From a virus, in UHGV virus genome UHGV-1347164: 14,343 nt of DNA, one strand, 5' to 3'. The notes beneath the pieces were generated by a model. The model saw only the letters and a list, made by a program, of their open reading frames with translations. It did not search any database and was not told where the DNA came from. The translations under genes were made by a program, and so were the position numbers. Each line of letters starts with the position of its first letter. Positions within the stretch are counted from its first letter, which is position 1. Of this stretch, positions 2,345 to 14,284 are shown in pieces.

Positions 2345-4099
2345 TTACTCACGCCCCAATTTCCATACTGAATTATACGATAAAATACTTAGTTCAGCAG
2401 CTCTTGACCTCATATGATCGGGCGTCCATTCTCCTTGATATTTATTTTCAAATTCATCAATAAAAATTTTAACTAGCGCATATTGTGATTGTTTATAAAT
2501 TTCAAGCTTATCCACAACAGACTTATTTCCAGCTTTTTCATTTAATTCTTTTGAAAGTGGTAATAAATTTCCTATCATGCTATATACTTCAGAATCCCCC
2601 ACACTCTGAGGCTGAATATGCTCTAATGTTAATGAATCAGGCATATACTCCCCCGTTTTCATGTGATGTAACTCAAGTCTATTAAAAATGTACTGAATCA
2701 ACCTTTTATTTTTCAACTCTTGATTTGAAAATTTAAGCATAACAAACTTTTCAACAAACATATTAATGTCTGGTTTTCTCTTCACCAACATTTCAAGCAA
2801 AGACTTTATTACTTGTCTATTACTAGCTTTAGTAGAACCTTCATCCACTAAAGCCCTAGCAGCTTTAGCATACGCACTTTCAATACCTGATGGTCGCAAT
2901 GAACAAATAGCATTAAACATAAAATGAAAGCGTTCAATTGACAGCACTGCATTATTCATATCAACAAGTTTTAGCGTTCCTCTTGCTCTTGCCTTAAATA
3001 AAGATAACAAAAATGGTTTATTCTGAGATATGTTAAACAGCCTTAATGCCTGCAAACCTCGATAAACTGGTTTCATTTCCAGTTCAGGAAAATCCTGTTC
3101 TGTAGGCGATGATATTTTCACATATATCTCGGCATCTGAAAGTAGCTCATCAATGAACGCTGAAGCATCAATGTCGCCTTTTTTCCACTTATCCAGAAAA
3201 GCTTTATAAAGAGTGTCACTACTTACATAAGAATATTTTGACACCCACCAATGACGGATAAATGTCTCGATAGAACCGACACCATTACGACTAGCAATTA
3301 TTTGCCTAATTTTATTCCATTTAGTTTTTGCATCATCATCAGGATGTGTGCCATTCAGTTTCTTAAATAATTTGTTTTTTATAAGATCTACATAACTTAA
3401 GTTTAATCCCCTAGCATTCAGAGTTTCAAAGATTGTATAAGCTTCATCTTCATCATTAACTGTAATATAAATCACTTTCAGATACCGTAGAACTTGATCC
3501 CGCACAGCCTTCAACGCTTCCAAGTAGATAAATTTCTCTCTATCTACTCCTAATGTCTGGCAAAGATTATCTTCTGAAAGATACTCAGTTAAATCATTAT
3601 ATGAAGATTGCAAGTTTCTTTCTTCAAGGGACTCCGGCCCTTCATTTCTCTTATCAATATGCTGAATGTTGTTTTGAAAGTATGGCTTAGGAGTTTCATT
3701 AACTAATTTAAAAAAAGGTCTGCCATCGTCATCCATACCAGATATATAATTATTATATATTGATTGAGCTACAGCCAACTCATTTATCAACTTAAATTTA
3801 TCACATAATGCTGATAACAATATAGTAAGAGTCGTAAGACGTTGTTGACCATCTACAATCATCAGCTCAGAGCTAGTTTCCTGCCCGACCAAAACGAGAG
3901 CACCGATGAAATACTCATCATATTGATACTGCCCATCCTCCTGGTAATGAATATTGGAAACTATATCATGCCAAAGTTCACTTACTTGTTCCTTCCCCCA
4001 AGAATATTCTCTTTGGAATCTAGGGACTATATATTTTTTATTTACAGATAACACGTTTGTTAAGGTTCGAGCATTTGCTTGCAGTTCCACTGAGGCCAC
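2345..4099 (-). CDS. GmrSD-family type IV (modification-dependent) restriction endonuclease-like protein: N-terminal DUF262 (ParB-like NTPase/nuclease fold) plus C-terminal DUF1524 (His-Me finger nuclease)
   Basis: N-terminal motifs FQREYSW and DGQQRLTT are the DUF262 hallmarks. C-terminal LEHIQPQS ... GNLLPLSKELNEKAGNKS matches the DUF1524 His-Me finger pattern. 584 aa, visibly AT-rich against the GC-rich phage genes. No early ATG: the start is probably GTG at 4099 or the GTG at 4090, which is preceded by AGGTGG. Confidence 0.7.
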   Translation of the reverse strand: MASVELQANARTLTNVLSVNKKYIVPRFQREYSWGKEQVSELWHDIVSNIHYQEDGQYQYDEYFIGALVLVGQETSSELMIVDGQQRLTTLTILLSALCDKFKLINELAVAQSIYNNYISGMDDDGRPFFKLVNETPKPYFQNNIQHIDKRNEGPESLEERNLQSSYNDLTEYLSEDNLCQTLGVDREKFIYLEALKAVRDQVLRYLKVIYITVNDEDEAYTIFETLNARGLNLSYVDLIKNKLFKKLNGTHPDDDAKTKWNKIRQIIASRNGVGSIETFIRHWWVSKYSYVSSDTLYKAFLDKWKKGDIDASAFIDELLSDAEIYVKISSPTEQDFPELEMKPVYRGLQALRLFNISQNKPFLLSLFKARARGTLKLVDMNNAVLSIERFHFMFNAICSLRPSGIESAYAKAARALVDEGSTKASNRQVIKSLLEMLVKRKPDINMFVEKFVMLKFSNQELKNKRLIQYIFNRLELHHMKTGEYMPDSLTLEHIQPQSVGDSEVYSMIGNLLPLSKELNEKAGNKSVVDKLEIYKQSQYALVKIFIDEFENKYQGEWTPDHMRSRAAELSILSYNSVWKLGRE

Positions 4100-4166
4100 C
4101 TACTTTAGTTGTTTGTATTACACAGTTTTATAGCATTGGAGTTTGAATGACAACCCGTTGCGCGCG

Positions 4167-4185
4167 CTCGTATCCCCGCCACGCC
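4167..4185 (-). other. cos-like cohesive-end motif (minus strand GGCGTGGCGGGGATACGAG)
   Basis: Minus-strand 19-mer matches the 186 cohesive end as I recall it (GGCGTGGCGGGGAAAGCAT) at 15 of 19 positions, and P2 (GGCGAGGCGGGGAAAGCAC) at 13 of 19. Orientation is the one expected for a P2-type left end reading toward Q. Exact ends and identity are unverified. Confidence 0.45.
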
Positions 4186-4564
4186 TGCCCGCTTTATGCA
4201 GTGGTTTTCATGCACATGCATGACATGAGCAAAAGCCCGCCAGTTCTGGCGGATCTGAGCAAAGACGATCCTCAATCGATCATGCGATTTCATGCAGCAT
4301 AGTCATGCACTGTCAAGGAAGTGAAAATCCGTATCTGAATGGCCACTTGAAAAACGGATCATACGGGTTTACAAAGATGAATGTTCGCTGTGAACGGGAA
4401 GCGGAAGTTAACTTTCAGATAACATAATCCATATGCACGAGAACCTCTAAAATAGAATGGGACACCTAAGCGGGGTACTTACAACGATTCTTTCCATATT
4501 CACAGTTAACACTCTGTTTGGCGTATTTTTATTCAAATAGCAAACACCAATAAAAGGAGTTTCC

Positions 4565-4900
4565 ATGAACAATATTCCCCCTATACCACAGTTAGGAATT
4601 TATGTCTCAAAAATCGATCCCACCCTACGTATCACTGTAACCGATGTTGATATTGTTGATGGTGAGGATGATTCTCCTGATGATGAATTGTTTTATTTAG
4701 TCCACTGGATCGAGGGGGAAGATGAAAGTGATATGACAGCAATGGGATTTGAGCTAGACCCAGTAGAGTGGCAGGCTTTCGTTGAATCTGAGCAATTAGT
4801 GTTTGAGCGTGATCCGTACATGGATTCAATCCCCGAAAATTCAAACTTGGCAAAGATTCGGGATTTTCTCATGAAGACTAAACAGAATGATCATTCGTAA
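4565..4900 (+). CDS. Hypothetical, highly acidic small protein (111 aa); function unknown
   Basis: Clean ATG with an AGGAG Shine-Dalgarno 6 nt upstream (aaaAGGAGtttccATG). About 26 Asp/Glu against 7 Lys/Arg by manual count. AT-rich; lies in the accessory region between the cos-like site and the end of gene A. Confidence 0.6.
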   Translation: MNNIPPIPQLGIYVSKIDPTLRITVTDVDIVDGEDDSPDDELFYLVHWIEGEDESDMTAMGFELDPVEWQAFVESEQLVFERDPYMDSIPENSNLAKIRDFLMKTKQNDHS

Positions 4901-5092
4901 GTGTAAGCATCCATCAGGAAAATGGTTTTGTAAGTGAATCATCAACTTTTAGAGAGTCTCAGACACTCCCACTTCTGCTTCTGACACAAAGCGGACGATC
5001 ACTTATCAAAATAACCGCCCACCTTACGCCTTATTTCACTCATTGCCCAAACTAGCCCCCATCAGAATGAATCCTCCTGGGGGCAACATTTC

Positions 5093-5326
5093 TTAATGCA
5101 GCCAGCTGTCGTCCTCCCACACCTTCTGCATAATTTTCATCACTTGTTTTCTTTCTTCATCCAGTTGCAGTCCGGTTAGTTCCACACCGTTAGAGCTACC
5201 TTTGCGAATGCGAATTACCGTTTTGGGATACAGGGGGCGCAGATTGCGGTAAAGCTCGGATTCAAGTGCGTCCAGGGTAGACTGGCTAATCTTCTGCTCT
5301 TTATCGATCATTATTTCAATGCGCAT
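5093..5326 (-). CDS. dinI: DinI-family protein (SOS-inducible RecA modulator homologue), about 77 aa from the internal ATG
   Basis: From Met25 of track ORF 5093..5398 the protein reads MRIEIMIDKEQ...DALESEL...KIMQKVWEDDSW, which aligns by eye with E. coli DinI (MRIEVTIAK...DALAGEL...ETWESADDW). A GAGGTG Shine-Dalgarno sits 6 nt upstream of this ATG and overlaps the stop of the preceding ORF. Confidence 0.7.
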   Translation of the reverse strand: MRIEIMIDKEQKISQSTLDALESELYRNLRPLYPKTVIRIRKGSSNGVELTGLQLDEERKQVMKIMQKVWEDDSWLH

Positions 5327-5336
5327 AAAAGTCACC

Positions 5337-5525
5337 TCAGCTGATGACATCCATTGAGCGGTTGTATTCGTGGCTTCTGATTTTTGCCATGAGTTCATCA
5401 GTCAATTCAGAAACCCACTGCAGAGCCAGCCCCTTCTCTTCATCACTACACTCACTAGCCGCTACAAGCTTAAGAAAAAAATCAATGCGCTGGAGCTTCA
5501 AAGACTCCAAAAAATAGTCCTGCAT
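5337..5525 (-). CDS. Hypothetical small protein (62 aa), first gene of a putative LexA-regulated operon; candidate Tum-like antirepressor component
   Basis: ATG at 5525-5523 is preceded by GGAGG (GGAGGaaaaATG). The track's longer 96-aa version starts at a TTG and would run through the LexA box and promoter, so the shorter form is preferred. Its TGA stop is embedded in the Shine-Dalgarno of the DinI-like gene, suggesting translational coupling. Confidence 0.5.
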   Translation of the reverse strand: MQDYFLESLKLQRIDFFLKLVAASECSDEEKGLALQWVSELTDELMAKIRSHEYNRSMDVIS

Positions 5526-5566: not shown

Positions 5567-5586
5567 CACTGTTTATATTTACAGTA
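5567..5586 (-). promoter_or_regulatory. LexA (SOS) box overlapping a candidate promoter for the small-ORF / DinI-like operon
   Basis: Plus strand reads cACTGTttatatttACAGta, i.e. CTGT-N8-ACAG with an AT-rich spacer, a near-consensus match to TACTGTATATATATACAGTA. It lies about 45 bp upstream of the ATG at 5525. A candidate -35 TTTACA and -10 TACTGT on the minus strand overlap the box. Confidence 0.55.
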
Positions 5587-5678: not shown

Positions 5679-8093
5679 TTAATACAGGTTCCGCCACTTA
5701 TCATCTTCCTTCAGACGCTGGTTCCGATAGAAGATACGCAGGCCTGCTCCTGACGGAATACTGCCGCCGCGAAGGAGCAAATCGACTTCTTTCTCGCTGC
5801 CATCAAATCCCCTGGACTTCAGTTCATAGACGAGCTGCTGTCGCTGATGGTCTGTAATTCGCTGTTTGTAGTCTTTACGCCGTTTCGGTTTCACCTGGCG
5901 TAACCTTGCAGCCAGTTCCCGGCGCTCTTTTTTGCTCATACTGTGCAGGTAATCGTGCAACTCCTTGTCATCCATGCGGGTAATGTCCGTTCTGGTGTCC
6001 CCATCAGCTGATTTATCTTTCTCCTGTTGGTTCAAATTTTCAGCAAGGGGACAGTTATTGCCACGAGTCCAAGGGGCGCAAGCGCCCTGGTCGGCTGCCG
6101 CCTCCTGAACGTCAACGGCTTTACGAACCATTTTCCACTTCACTGCATGAGTGCAGATCTTGCCCTCTGCAATGGGTGACCAGATGCCATAAATACGAAT
6201 GCCGTGATCGCCATAGGCGGTCGGCTCTTCGTTGATTTCATAAGCGGTTCTGATGAGGTGATATTTACGGGGAACCAGTACGCCGCCCTGCTTCATGATG
6301 TAGGTGGCAAAACAACCAGCATCAGCAGCAGCCAGGATTGCATCAAGGCGCGGGTTATCCAGTACCGGCGCACCTGCTTTTTTGTCACCCTGTTGCCTTG
6401 CCGCCTGACCAGCCAGCAATCGCAGTTCACGGTAAGCCTGACGCCCCGGAATGCCAAAGAAGCGGAATTGCTGAACACGATGCAGAGACGCCCAGGCATT
6501 TACGTATTCAGCGTTATCACGCAGGGATTTACCCGTTTCCTTGCTGATCTCGCCAGCCAGACCACGCCCGTCAATGTTCTTACTGATGTATTTCGCGATA
6601 TAGCTTGTTGGCGTACCTTTGCGCGGGTTTATCAGCTCAGACTTAAAGCGTGGTCCCGTGTTATTGCCCAACTCCTCGCGGTCTTCACGGATGGCAAACT
6701 TACGCAGTAATGCAGTGATGGCGCGGCGGTCTTTTTTACGCATGAAACACATGAGATGCCAGTGCACAGTACCGTCATGATGCGGCTCAGCTACCCGCAC
6801 GCCATACCAGCGCAACCCGGCTTTATGCATAGCCTTACGAAATGCAGCAAACATGCCGACCAGATAATCGCTACTTTGTCTTACCGTCGCGTTTGTCCAG
6901 GTCGGGTTTGGTCTGCCGTTATTGAGCGTGGAATGGAAACGCGACGGACAGGTGATAGTGTAGAAAACGGCACAGTCACTGCGCATTTCCGCGATAAGCT
7001 CCAGACCTTTAACACAGGCCATCATCTCATTGCGGCGATGCGCAGGGTTGCTGCTGCTGGCGTTTACCACATCCTCCATGTCCAGCGTGTCGCCGTCTTC
7101 GTTCACCAGTTCATGAGAACGGAAAAACTCCAGCGACTTACGGCGCTGCTCACGTTTATGCAACACGGCTTCATAGCTGACATAGGGAGATGCTTTTTTG
7201 CTGACAAGGCAGACAGCACGCAACTGCTCTTCCCGCCATTCGCAACGCATCTTCCATAATTTCCGATACCACCAGTCGGCACACAACATACGCGCCAGCG
7301 AACCCGGGATGAGTTCATAGGGCACTGGTTTGCGGCGGTTTCTTTTCCGACGAAGTTTCTCAAACGCAGGCGGGATAACATCCAGACGCAGGGTTTCCGC
7401 TGCCACCTTTTCCCATGTCTTGCGGATTTCTTCTGGCTTAACGTCATCGGTGGCATACAAATCACCACAAGCGGCCTCAAGACACATGCTCATATGCGCT
7501 GCTACCAGGGTGGACAGGCGTTTTACCTGATCCTGACTCATTTCAGGCAGGATCAGCAGGCCCTCAAGCCCTTGATGGCTTGCCATAAAACGGAAAGAAG
7601 CGGATAGCTGACTGTCGCGTACATACTCCAGTCGCTCCAGACATGGCTTAATCGTCTCACGCAAATAGCGGGAATAAGCCTTTGGCCTGCCCAGGCTGCT
7701 GAAGTATTCGATACGTTGCATCAGCGGCTTGCTGATGTGGGTAGGCTGGGCGCTGACGTCCGACAGAATGACCATGTCCGGGTCAAAACGCTGCTGCTCA
7801 TGCGCCAGCTTTGCCCGGCTAATGAGCTTATCCTGCTCCATTTCGCGCTGGACAGGATCACGGGATTCATTAAAGAAATAACGTTCCCAGACCTGATCAC
7901 TCAGTGCCTCGCGGCGCTGCTGTTCCTGCTCGTTATCGGCAGCGTACAGAGTGATCATGTTTGAAAGTGCAGACTCCGGCGCAACTTCCTCCGGTTCCAG
8001 ATAAGGGTTAATGGCCTTTTTCGGGCCGTTCCATGAAAATGCTGCGGCAGCCTCGTTAAAGCCGCTAGAGTTGCTCATATCGTCATTACTCAT
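5679..8093 (-). CDS. A: Replication initiation endonuclease, P2 gpA-like rolling-circle (HUH) initiator
   Basis: 804 aa, ATG start at 8093-8091. Contains an HUH-type motif (TVHWHLMCF) and a tyrosine motif (YIAKYISK). Size and position downstream of the early operon match P2/186 gene A. GC-rich. Confidence 0.85.
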
Positions 8094-10905: not shown

Positions 10906-11481
10906 ATGGATTTCAGCAGCGGTGGTAAGAAAGTCATTGAACGTCTAGTTGAGGCGTATGGGTTCTCTACTAGACAGGCTCTTTGCGATCACTTGGGAGT
11001 ATCCAAGAGCACTATGGCTACACGTTACATGCGAGACATCTTCCCTGCAGATTGGGTTTTGCAATGTGCTATCGAAACTGGTTATTCACTAGAATGGTTG
11101 TCATTCGGTATAGGTGATAAAAATATTTCAAATACAAATGCGCAAATTTTAGTACCAAAGAAAAAATTAATTTCTGGAACACTAATTGAAGATGGGGCAT
11201 ATGTTTTTGATAAAGCATTCTTACCTGAAAAAATATGTAACCCATTCATCATTGAAGATCTGGATAACGAATATATATGTAGTTTTGAATATGATGATAT
11301 AAGCGATGGATTGTGGCTAATAGGTATCGACGAAAAAATTTCGGTCCGAACCCTGACCCGCTTACCTAATAACAGATTATATGTTGAAGGAGGAAATCGT
11401 GGTTTTGAGTGTTCTAGAGACGAAATACAGATTGTTGGAATTGTGTGGTGTTGCATACTAAGAAGAGCAGAAAAATTTTAA
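10906..11481 (+). CDS. cI: Immunity repressor CI (186 CI-like, N-terminal HTH; no obvious S24 Ser-Lys autocleavage motif)
   Basis: 191 aa, ATG at 10906 with GGAG 5 nt upstream. Divergent from apl-cII across a 144-bp switch region. N-terminal HTH-like segment (TRQALCDHLGVSKSTMATRYM); C-terminal part ends in a LexA/CI-like beta-rich tail (NRLYVEGGNRGFECSRDEIQIVGIV) without a GDSM-type serine motif. The C-terminal half is AT-rich. Confidence 0.65.
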   Translation: MDFSSGGKKVIERLVEAYGFSTRQALCDHLGVSKSTMATRYMRDIFPADWVLQCAIETGYSLEWLSFGIGDKNISNTNAQILVPKKKLISGTLIEDGAYVFDKAFLPEKICNPFIIEDLDNEYICSFEYDDISDGLWLIGIDEKISVRTLTRLPNNRLYVEGGNRGFECSRDEIQIVGIVWCCILRRAEKF

Positions 11482-11512: not shown

Positions 11513-12844
11513 ATGCCTATTGAATATACGTTTGATTATCGTGACGAGTTCCTTCGTAAGCCTATTGCTGAAAAATTAATATCGCTACTTGACTCTGATA
11601 TTAACTTATCTCCACTGGTTATAGATGGCGGATGGGGCACGGGGAAAACAGAGTTTTGCAAAAAAGTTGCAAATCTAATTGAAAGCAATAATCAAAAACA
11701 TAAAGTAGTTTACATTGATGCTTTCGCTGAAGATCATAATGATGCCCCAATTTTGACGTTAATGGCTGGTGTTGCTGCACTTCTTCCCGAAAATGAACGA
11801 AAGGAGTTAATAAATAAAACACTTCCAGCAATACGTTTTGGTTTGAAAACCATTTTCAAAGCAGGCACTGGATGGGTGTTAAAACAAAATGCAGATGACA
11901 TTGTTGATGGCTTCGAAGATGCTATCAAAGAAGCAACTTCGAGTGCAATTGACAGTACAATTGAAACATTATTAGACGATCATATAGAGGCGCAGAAAAA
12001 CATCGAGACACTGAGAAGTACAATATCGCATCTTACAGAGGAATATAAAATAACGATTTTTATAGACGAACTGGACAGATGTAAACCTACATTCGCTCTT
12101 TCAATCATAGAAAATATCAAACACATTTTTGAAATAAAAAATTTAAATTTTGTATTGGTTGCAAAGACTCAACAACTCAAGGCATCAATAAGGCATCTGT
12201 ATGGTTTATCCATAAATGCAGATCAGTATTTAGACAAATTCATTAAGTTTACATTTGTATTGCCAGATACATATAAACCAGATAACTATACACCTGCATA
12301 CGCATCTGTTGCTTTATGGGGAATATTAAAAAATGATTCTCAAAAACTGCAAGAAGTAGACGAATCATGCGGGCATATCATAAAAACGATAATACAAAGG
12401 GCTAAGTTGTCTTTACGTGAAGTAGAAACATTATCACGCCACTTTGAAATATATCAGGTGCTATCTCAATCTGGAATTGGTCCAGGGAAAGTATTTGGTT
12501 ATTCATTATATCGAATGTTAGGGGTAATATTATACTCTCTAAATCGCCCTTTGGCATTAAGTTATCTAGATAATTCTGTGGATGCAGAAAGCATTATCAA
12601 AACCTTAGGCTTTGAATATTTAAGTTACGATGAAGATATTTATAGGATAGATAATACTGAATGTGCTATTTATGGGATCGTACTGGACTATATTGATACA
12701 ACATCTCCATTCTTTATAAAAGATGATGAAACCAGAAGAAAATGGACTGAACGTGCTACCTATGATTTCTTTCAAAACGGCTTAGACGCAGTGCCTCCCC
12801 GAACACTTGTTTCGTCCACCATTGAAGCTTTAATGTTGAACTAA
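11513..12844 (+). CDS. KAP-family P-loop NTPase (candidate prophage-encoded defence or lysogenic-conversion gene)
   Basis: 443 aa with Walker A GGWGTGKT and the KAP-type Walker B IFIDELDRC, separated by a moderately hydrophobic segment (APILTLMAGVAALLP...). GGAG 6 nt upstream of the ATG. Strongly AT-rich; starts 31 bp after the cI stop and ends 80 bp before int. Confidence 0.8.
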   Translation: MPIEYTFDYRDEFLRKPIAEKLISLLDSDINLSPLVIDGGWGTGKTEFCKKVANLIESNNQKHKVVYIDAFAEDHNDAPILTLMAGVAALLPENERKELINKTLPAIRFGLKTIFKAGTGWVLKQNADDIVDGFEDAIKEATSSAIDSTIETLLDDHIEAQKNIETLRSTISHLTEEYKITIFIDELDRCKPTFALSIIENIKHIFEIKNLNFVLVAKTQQLKASIRHLYGLSINADQYLDKFIKFTFVLPDTYKPDNYTPAYASVALWGILKNDSQKLQEVDESCGHIIKTIIQRAKLSLREVETLSRHFEIYQVLSQSGIGPGKVFGYSLYRMLGVILYSLNRPLALSYLDNSVDAESIIKTLGFEYLSYDEDIYRIDNTECAIYGIVLDYIDTTSPFFIKDDETRRKWTERATYDFFQNGLDAVPPRTLVSSTIEALMLN

Positions 12845-12924: not shown

Positions 12925-13956
12925 ATGGCAGTACGAAAACTCACCACAGGAAAATGGCTTTGCGAATGTTACCCCGCCGGACGTAGTGGGCGTCGTGTAC
13001 GTAAACAATTCGCCACCAAAGGCGAAGCACTGGCTTTTGAGCGTCACACGATGGAAGAAACCGAAGCAAAGCCCTGGCTGGGTGAATCCGTGGATCGTCG
13101 AACACTGAAAGACGTGGTTGAGCTATGGTTCAAACTACATGGTAAATCTCTGACAGCTGGGCAGCATGTCTATGACAAATTGCTGTTGATGGTTGACGCT
13201 CTGGGCAATCCTCTTGCAACCGATCTCACCTCTAAAATGTTTGCCCACTATCGAGATAAACGCCTGACAGGTGAGATCTACTTCAGCGAGAAATGGAAGA
13301 AAGGAGCAAGCCCGGTCACCATTAACCTGGAGCAAAGCTATCTAAGTAGTGTTTTTAGCGAACTATCCCGCCTGGGCGAATGGTCGTATCCAAACCCACT
13401 GGAGAACATGCGAAAATTCACCATCGCAGAAAAAGAGATGGCATGGCTTACCCATGAGCAGATTGTTGAACTGCTGGATGATTGCAAACGTCAGGACCCA
13501 ATTCTGGCACTGGTAGTCAAGATATGCTTAAGCACAGGCGCACGCTGGCGAGAAGCAATAAACCTTACCCGATCACAGGTGACCAAATACCGAATTACCT
13601 TTGTAAGAACGAAGGGGAAGAAAAACAGAAGCATCCCTATCAGTAAAGAGCTTTATGAAGAGATCATGGCGCTTGATGGGTTCAATTTCTTCACAGACTG
13701 CTATTTTCAATTTTTATCCGTGATGGAAAAAACGTCTATCGTGCTCCCTCGCGGTCAACTGACACACGTTCTGCGCCATACGTTTGCGGCGCACTTCATG
13801 ATGTCGGGTGGAAATATCCTGGCCTTACAAAAAATTCTCGGGCATCACGATATAAAAATGACTATGCGTTACGCACATCTGGCACCGGATCACCTTGAAA
13901 CTGCATTACGGTTTAATCCGCTGGCAACACTACCAACATCAATAGCAAGTTTTTGA
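12925..13956 (+). CDS. int: Tyrosine site-specific integrase (P2/186 Int-like)
   Basis: 343 aa. The C-terminal catalytic region LTHVLRHTFAAHFMMSGGNILALQKILGHHDIKMTMRYAHLAPDH contains the R...H-x-x-R...Y pattern of tyrosine recombinases. GGAGGG Shine-Dalgarno upstream of the ATG. Position at the end of the lysogeny operon matches P2/186. Confidence 0.85.
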   Translation: MAVRKLTTGKWLCECYPAGRSGRRVRKQFATKGEALAFERHTMEETEAKPWLGESVDRRTLKDVVELWFKLHGKSLTAGQHVYDKLLLMVDALGNPLATDLTSKMFAHYRDKRLTGEIYFSEKWKKGASPVTINLEQSYLSSVFSELSRLGEWSYPNPLENMRKFTIAEKEMAWLTHEQIVELLDDCKRQDPILALVVKICLSTGARWREAINLTRSQVTKYRITFVRTKGKKNRSIPISKELYEEIMALDGFNFFTDCYFQFLSVMEKTSIVLPRGQLTHVLRHTFAAHFMMSGGNILALQKILGHHDIKMTMRYAHLAPDHLETALRFNPLATLPTSIASF

Positions 13957-14014: not shown

Positions 14015-14284
14015 ATGAATAAGTTTCAGCATCAGGGAGCGGAATTGCGCAACAGAGCAAAAGAATTGGCTTTATCCGTACTTAAAACTCACCCAGATGC
14101 CCAAAAAAACGGCAACGGCGTTAAGCAAGCTGAGGTATTTCGTCTAAGCGGCCTCGATTGGGGAGAAAAACGGAAAGCAACAAGTTCGAACCAACAATAT
14201 TGGGTTGTTGCACTATTGCGTGAACTAGAAGAGGAAGGGTTAGTCGAACAGATTGAAGATAGAGGCCCCTGGCGTCTAAGGTAA
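14015..14284 (+). CDS. Hypothetical protein (89 aa) beyond int; either flanking host DNA or another element
   Basis: Clean ATG with GGAG about 9 nt upstream. No recognisable motif; the C-terminal part (QYWVVALLRELEEEGLVEQIEDRGPW) could be winged-helix-like. Lies after the expected att junction. Confidence 0.4.
   Translation: MNKFQHQGAELRNRAKELALSVLKTHPDAQKNGNGVKQAEVFRLSGLDWGEKRKATSSNQQYWVVALLRELEEEGLVEQIEDRGPWRLR

Follow-up and report, generated by a model that had tools for sequence, protein, structure and literature searches.

A strongly acidic DUF8087 protein beside cos of a P2/186-like Escherichia coli prophage: an apparently stand-alone cargo gene with a possible charge-based function

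The best-studied hotspot for anti-phage cargo in P2-like prophages contains, among the 'hypothetical' entries that surveys skip, a gene for a small and strongly acidic protein. Does this protein serve the defence gene that faces it across cos, or does it have a function of its own, and of what kind? We addressed this question in a window of 14,343 nt (the whole stretch of DNA that was analysed), which is part of a P2/186-like E. coli prophage and whose positions 4100-5400 find their best database match in an E. coli contig (L045, 99.8% identity). The protein family had already been catalogued (DUF8087, PHROG 17127) and its location here is a hotspot described before in print; new here are the independence of the gene from the adjacent defence gene, the history of its cassette with an integrase stump, and the conservation of charge throughout the family. 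The layout of the window is as follows:

150-1271, + strand: terminase, C-terminus
1268-2317, + strand: portal gene Q
2345-4099, − strand: GmrSD-family gene (Pfam GmrSD_N and GmrSD_C; PADLOC HEC-06/Orf5-like), cargo across cos
4154-4311: P2-like cos region, a conserved block of about 150 bp, with the core GGCGTGGCGGGGA at 4173-4185 on the − strand
4554-4559, + strand: Shine-Dalgarno sequence AAGGAG, 5 nt 5′ of the ATG, read from the sequence
4565-4900, + strand: acidic ORF of 111 aa (DUF8087/PF26332, PHROG 17127, identical to WP_001059831)
5055-5084: G+C-rich hairpin between the convergent acidic and DinI-like genes (−16.2 kcal/mol, z = −2.6 on the + strand)
5093-5326, − strand: DinI-like gene
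5337-5525, − strand: 62-aa gene (PHROG 698)
5679-8093, − strand: replication endonuclease gpA
between gpA and CI, in this order: Dam, TraR/DksA, CII, Apl/Cox
10906-11481, + strand: CI repressor
11513-12844, + strand: KAP NTPase
12925-13956, + strand: integrase

The product of the acidic ORF has 26 D/E and 7 K/R residues, a net charge of −19 and a pI of 4.05. A preliminary description of this DNA had arrived at about the same charge by manual count and had pointed to the clusters DGEDDSPDDE and EGEDESD, both of which are present in the translation, and to the strong Shine-Dalgarno sequence listed above. The ATG and the AAGGA are kept in orthologues of other genera. We calculated pairwise dN/dS (Nei-Gojobori) against copies from Serratia, Lonsdalea, Proteus, Morganella, Klebsiella, Buttiauxella and other E. 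coli lineages, and obtained 0.07-0.27 in nearly all pairs with dS up to about 1.4, a range that includes cassette copies that have lost both neighbours; the highest value (0.42) came from a single comparison with only 8 differences. The acidic ORF is a genuine gene under purifying selection. At 40%, its G+C content is below that of the terminase, portal and gpA genes (51-58%), as is usual for cargo that has been acquired.

The protein is a full-length member of its family, without any difference from DUF8087/PHROG 17127. The match to PHROG 17127 covers residues 1-111 of 111 (E = 2e-70), each of its 61 homologue clusters has a precomputed Pfam PF26332 hit, and the identical RefSeq protein WP_001059831 is named 'DUF8087 domain-containing protein'. 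The preliminary description had not recognised the family, and indeed no characterised family was found: DUF8087 and PHROG 17127 carry no assigned function, a Pfam model set that lacks PF26332 and the PADLOC-DB 2.0 defence profiles each gave 0 families at E <= 1, and NCBIfam returned nothing. The protein has no transmembrane segment, signal peptide or enzyme motif. A literature search for DUF8087 and WP_001059831 returned no paper on either, and the motif GIYVSK had no match in the supplementary texts searched, sequence tables included. WP_001059831 appears only as 'hypothetical' in a table of P2 hotspot genes, alongside RVT_1, PIN_12 and others (PMC9122126, Table S5A).

The GmrSD-family gene starts at 4099 on the − strand, so that the spacer separating it from the divergent acidic ORF measures exactly 465 bp (4100-4564), as the preliminary description had estimated, and the cos-like motif noticed there lies inside it. 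This motif is the P2/186-type cos core (4173-4185), which was matched by 0 of 200 shuffles, and the block surrounding it (about 4154-4311) is common to the cos regions of Fels-2, SopEΦ, Klebsiella P2-like prophages and others. No more than 400 bp separate the acidic ORF from the cos end of the virion DNA; being on opposite sides of cos, the ORF and the GmrSD gene would be found at opposite ends of the virion DNA. On its other side the ORF is convergent with the DinI-like gene and the early operon, and the hairpin in between is a possible bidirectional terminator with weak U-tracts, to judge from its position and predicted stability. This location between cos and the DinI-like gene is the old/tin slot of P2, not an early-gene position, and old and tin occupy the same slot in P2 in the same orientation as the acidic ORF here (PMC9122126).

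Several further features of the window were recorded. A perfect LexA-box pattern (CTGTTTATATTTACAG) at 5569-5584 stands ahead of the 62-aa gene and the DinI-like gene, and together these look like a split, SOS-controlled operon of Tum-type antirepressor; the DinI-family gene at the corresponding position of the Fels-2 record is noted as similar to TumB of phage PsP3. We considered an SOS-controlled antirepressor role for the acidic gene as well and rejected it, since the only LexA box belongs to the DinI-like operon. Just 3′ of the integrase, in the int-att cargo region, an 89-aa ORF (14015-14284, + strand) had no match in PHROG or PADLOC. Rfam and tRNA scans of the whole window were empty.

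Three hotspots have been published for P2-like prophages, gpA-gpQ, int-primase and int-att, and the interval between C and int is a general cargo slot (PMC13586616). In order to examine what faces the acidic protein across cos, we compared the interval from the portal gene to the acidic gene in 40 loci that encode a protein at least 96% identical to it. About 21 different gene sets were found opposite the acidic gene, and 2 of the 40 loci had no ORF of at least 90 aa in the interval. The sets include the retron Ec86 reverse transcriptase (RT) with its effector (in BL21(DE3)), retron Ec67, other RTs, an RT-SMC ATPase system, ShosTA (ShosA/PRTase), an Old-like ATPase, AbiU, bSEFIR and AbiL, and three mutually distant GmrSD variants fill the portal-side slot in sister prophages. 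Reciprocally, the same GmrSD gene is paired elsewhere with a different, 141-aa gene in the slot of the acidic ORF, and this slot is filled in other prophages by SieB, AIPR, KAP NTPase or DUF4145 genes (PMC9122126, Table S5A).

As the acidic gene faces so many different cargo sets, cos divides two cargo slots that vary independently, and the acidic gene is one allele of the old/tin slot. The features of P2-like hotspot cargo are all found: a published variable slot, atypical G+C, replacement in sister phages and movement between slots. Conserved co-occurrence with GmrSD was not observed, and the acidic protein is not a dedicated GmrSD partner. Two genes of the window that match defence profiles may be described here for their own sake. 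The GmrSD-family gene (2345-4099) matches the PADLOC HEC-06 and 'Orf5' profiles (E = 4e-90), and the KAP-family P-loop NTPase (11513-12844) matches the PADLOC candidate defence family PDC-S20 nearly end to end (E = 1e-173); it fills the C-int slot, which DUF8087 relatives occupy in other P2-like prophages.

When positions 4100-5400 of the window were aligned by blastn with copies of the gene in unrelated contexts, a single cassette proved to be the sole shared part, and traces of other genes were found within it or at its edge:

4387-4936, + strand: mobile cassette of about 550 bp (178 nt upstream, the ORF, 36 nt downstream)
4451-4540, + strand: candidate 3′ relic of an FlkN-like, tail-anchored gene, ending ...LFGVFLFK-stop
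4887-4937, + strand: 5′ relic of a P2-type integrase gene (KHPSGKWFCK-stop in the +1 frame, compared with the Int N-terminus MTVRKLPSGKWLSECY)

The alignments (Serratia, Lonsdalea, Proteus, Morganella and others) begin at about 4387-4443 and all end at 4936, and the upstream 170 nt are 84-87% identical across unrelated contexts. The integrase relic is longer in sister cassettes, where it extends over 45-62 codons 3′ of the gene (tblastn E 1e-9 to 1e-19), and an intact int overlaps or closely follows the DUF8087 stop codon in Klebsiella aerogenes, Buttiauxella and several IMG/VR P2-like prophages. There the operon is intact and has the order C-type repressor, FlkN-like gene, DUF8087, int. The FlkN-like protein (209-215 aa, PHROG 5825) has a Flk_N domain and a C-terminal membrane anchor, and its gene lies directly upstream in every intact P2-like context of the 111-aa subfamily. 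By eye, the ...LFGVFLFK-stop of the window resembles the ...LLGAVLFK-stop of the intact upstream gene in one of these loci (L040); tblastn did not detect the FlkN-like 3′ relic, so that its assignment stays a visual one. The gene thus belonged at first to this lysogeny operon of P2-like phages, and a piece of about 550 bp with the first codons of int was later taken up by other cargo slots, among them the old/tin-type slot of the window and chromosomal islands of other Enterobacterales; the simplest reading is one capture followed by spread. As a separate observation on the intact operons (L040 5914-6976 and L008 5857-6970), one motif, GNRxAGRD[YF]xExN, occurs both in the repressor, at its C-terminus (...SGQGNRVAGRDYNENKK), and in the FlkN-like protein encoded next to it, at the N-terminus (...GRENRAAGRDFHEGN...); it may point to a duplication or to a joint left by recombination.

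Divergence in the upstream 170 nt proceeds at about half the rate of synonymous sites, which suggests that the promoter may now reside there, and the relic at 4451-4540 may serve today as promoter or leader DNA. A sigma-70 scan of positions 4050-5450 with standard spacing found no site; the lone candidate seen was a TTCACA-19 nt-TATTTT pair at 4500-4530, from which we infer, at most, a promoter-like element. The 5′ leader of the acidic gene showed no unusual RNA structure.

The nucleotide sequence of the ORF is present in 214 of 5426 complete E. coli genomes, with at least 99% identity in 132 of them, and the protein is 100% identical in BL21(DE3), E. coli B, W and E2348/69. IMG/VR adds 35 prophage-derived contigs that carry the gene. 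A tblastn search of 50,697 GenBank phages gave no match to the protein and a plasmid search returned one record only; the gene was found neither in sequenced phage isolates nor in plasmid leading regions. Further copies in unrelated contexts were seen at loci of Serratia, Symbiopectobacterium, Lonsdalea and Proteus, and a Morganella copy lies in an island downstream of a 1169-aa helicase-PLD protein.

Two E. coli settings may be noted in addition. In BL21(DE3) (L003/L047; NC_012971.2 877081-880000) the identical acidic gene lies across cos from retron Ec86 (St85-family RT plus effector), in a defective prophage whose gpA is truncated and which retains a gpA-CII fusion remnant. A copy at 90% identity is carried by about 80 complete E. 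coli genomes; in the one genome examined (L071, E. coli FDAARGOS_497, NZ_CP033850.1 3672000-3712000) this copy is outside a P2-like prophage, in a large ychF-adjacent island that contains IS1182 and IS3 elements, a 1589-aa DEAD/DEAH helicase, a 1727-aa hypothetical protein, an AAA ATPase, RadC and DUF2787.

Profile searches widened the family to 35 clusters among 1.84 billion representatives and, in a second, clustered protein database (5.8 billion clusters), to 89 clusters. Its members share a core of about 70 residues with just three invariant positions (P8, G11 and W69), and the first acidic loop has anything from 0 to about 10 residues. Net charge, on the other hand, lies between −8 and −22 in all 56 relatives examined. 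With so few invariant residues and such variable acidic loops, it is bulk charge that is conserved rather than a catalytic constellation, and negative charge is the most conserved property of the family. A Pfam scan of the 56 relatives gave scattered chance matches only, so that a link to DUF1292/DUF1653 was discarded despite one UniRef label DUF1292.

The relatives are found in varied settings. In one P2-like prophage an 82-aa member overlaps int at its 3′ end, Pantoea members stand alone at the pgsA-uvrC attachment region, and betaproteobacterial members (94-101 aa), which are extended at the N-terminus by a basic stretch, MGQAKLRGSKEERIAQ, come first among the genes that diverge from the AlpA-GPA operon of Int-GPA elements. 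DUF8087 is present in all three P2 cargo regions (gpA-gpQ, int-primase and int-att), and lies on the lysogeny side wherever the element is intact. Small Int-AlpA(HTH_17)-GPA integrative elements with a DUF8087 homologue, from Nitrosospira and a metagenome contig (L072, L077), were also seen to carry as cargo a TIR-AAA-TPR protein (TIR-NLR), or Gabija and a BglII/MT-A70 restriction-modification (R-M) system.

AlphaFold2, run with 56 sequences, gave a model with a mean pLDDT of 83.7 (81-84 over the five models, which are consistent) and a pTM of 0.70. The predicted core of about 80 residues consists of five β-strands and one α-helix (residues 11-82; strands 11-15, 22-31, 43-50, 61-64 and 78-82, helix 66-76), and is followed by a C-terminal helix (94-109) that is an addition in Enterobacterales. 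The Asp/Glu-rich loops 32-42 and 51-60 have lower model confidence. Foldseek searches with this model found nothing significant. DUF1653 (PDB 3be3), FeoA, Tudor, the CarD N-domain and EF-P domain I came up with twilight-zone scores and 8-13% identity, and the predicted fold resembles SH3-like barrels weakly, a likeness that permits no functional inference. PDB profile searches with A2 and A3 profiles gave 0 matches. A profile of distant members (A4) had the SaPI protein CpmB as its lone PDB match (E = 0.29); we took this for chance, because CpmB is helical. Structure prediction and remote homology searches, then, produced no confident match to an unrelated housekeeping fold, the result that the preliminary description had named as speaking against its idea of a DNA mimic.

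What may such a protein do? The acidic ORF appears to be a working accessory gene (a 'moron') of P2/186-like prophages that stands on its own. Its product is homologous to no validated defence gene, is far smaller and has no enzymatic domain; with P2 old and tin and the gpA-gpQ cargo it shares the slot and the moron-like arrangement (PMC9122126, PMC13586616). The high and conserved negative charge of nucleic-acid mimics is found here (−19; relatives −8 to −22), and such family-wide bulk acidity is plausibly what an inhibitor that mimics nucleic acid would show. We tentatively favour, at somewhat less than an even chance, a charge-driven protein inhibitor or decoy expressed in the lysogen, whose mechanism we infer as follows. 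The protein would be made in the lysogen, as suggested by the position of the gene, which is co-directional and overlapping with int in P2-like prophages, divergent from AlpA-GPA in others and in the old/tin slot here. It would work alone and use its dense negative charge to bind another protein, on a basic and probably nucleic-acid-binding surface that it would then occupy as a mimic, decoy or inhibitor. Either a competing phage or mobile element would supply the target protein, or the target would be a host or defence nuclease. A precedent of sorts is CarS of Myxococcus xanthus, an acidic antirepressor of SH3 topology that mimics operator DNA and sequesters the DNA-recognition helix (PMC2926617); CarS, too, is a small acidic β-rich domain, and the likeness is one of analogy, not of homology (PMC2926617). 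A bolder version, which we consider somewhat unlikely, would make DUF8087 a nucleic-acid mimic of a new fold, a constitutive decoy on the lysogeny side that acts either as a single-protein prophage defence or as a broad anti-nuclease shield.

Other explanations start from the neighbours of the gene. The acidic protein could belong to a two-gene lysogen module with the FlkN-like protein, for example in superinfection exclusion or abortive infection, where it would regulate or neutralise its partner, leaving the copy in the window an orphan of reduced or altered function. The constant upstream position of the FlkN-like gene in intact P2-like contexts of the 111-aa subfamily, and the FlkN-like 3′ end that the cassette apparently keeps, fit such a module. 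We nevertheless regard it as unlikely: partnerless cassettes are widespread (214 of 5426 E. coli genomes) and still under purifying selection, shorter relatives occur without any FlkN-like gene, and the FlkN-like protein has no match among known defence profiles.

The preliminary description had compared the protein, in principle, with Ocr or ArdA, and small size, the charge of −19, the pI of 4.05 and family-wide acidity speak for an anti-restriction mimic of this type, which would be made on phage entry and block type I R-M, BREX or similar systems. Like Ocr (T7 gp0.3) and ArdA, the acidic protein is small, cytosolic, very acidic (pI about 4) and encoded by a phage or mobile element, and its gene is within 400 bp of the virion cos end. 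The likeness goes no further, as there is neither a sequence relation (Pfam, PDB) nor a fold relation in the model, which matched no other known mimic either. Ocr and ArdA are elongated, mainly helical dimers whose carboxylates trace the B-DNA backbone, whereas a β domain with acidic loops is predicted here, and their genes lie in early or leading regions, whereas the acidic gene lies in lysogeny and cargo slots. Its relatives belong to a repressor-int lysogeny operon, not to an early lytic one, and it was not found in sequenced phage isolates or plasmid leading regions. Anti_RM and Anti_CRISPR DefenseFinder matches, moreover, were found in only 28 elements in a 2026 survey of 1511 P2-like prophages (PMC13586616). 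An Ocr/ArdA-type role is accordingly quite unlikely in our judgement.

An accessory role in site-specific recombination or replication, either as a modulator of integration and excision or as an inhibitor that silences gpA, Cox or Apl in the lysogen, is suggested by the overlap of the gene with the start or end of int in several P2-like prophages and by the distant relatives in betaproteobacterial Int-AlpA-GPA elements. We find it improbable, since orphans are under selection beside a dead int stump or in islands with unrelated integrases, and the C-int interval is open to cargo in general (PMC13586616), as the KAP NTPase (PDC-S20) illustrates in the window. Known directionality factors are, besides, basic DNA binders, which the acidic protein is not.

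Small acidic nuclease inhibitors are a known class, and an orphan immunity-type inhibitor (barstar- or colicin Im-like) might shield the lysogen from the nuclease toxin of a competitor (colicin, CDI or T6SS effector); one orphan copy adjoins an Imm42 immunity gene and another is about 5 kb from a T6SS Hcp gene. These neighbourhood signals are anecdotal, however, in none of the contexts seen does a cognate toxin gene adjoin it, and no Pfam immunity family was matched, all of which makes this role decidedly improbable. Very improbable is a decaying hitch-hiker without present function, kept because the cassette is young, even though gene relics flank the cassette and most E. coli copies are at least 99% identical: the dN/dS of 0.07-0.27 extends over dS values up to about 1.4, and the frame is intact in at least 61 clusters from many genera, with the Shine-Dalgarno sequence conserved. 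Finally, a role dedicated to the adjacent GmrSD nuclease, whether as its regulator or partner (the other suggestion of the preliminary description) or as its antitoxin, for which the divergent pair across 465 bp speaks, is hardly credible, being contradicted by about 21 cargo sets or none opposite an identical protein, and further weakened by the same GmrSD gene occurring with another gene in the acidic-ORF slot and by the separation of the two genes, by cos, to opposite ends of the virion DNA.

The integrase stump of the cassette is a clean example of cargo shuffling among the three P2 hotspots. Were the protein a charge-based inhibitor, the few known nucleic-acid mimics would be joined by one with a new fold. 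Should the bolder version, a constitutive DUF8087 decoy, prove true, the protein would disable a DNA- or RNA-binding protein or, as a shield, let the prophage coexist with a changing nuclease and retron cargo, and BL21(DE3) would be expressing such a decoy unnoticed. The presence of the gene in BL21(DE3), B, W and E2348/69 makes it readily accessible to genetics, and a charge-based inhibitor in these backgrounds could affect phage-sensitivity and retron experiments in B strains.
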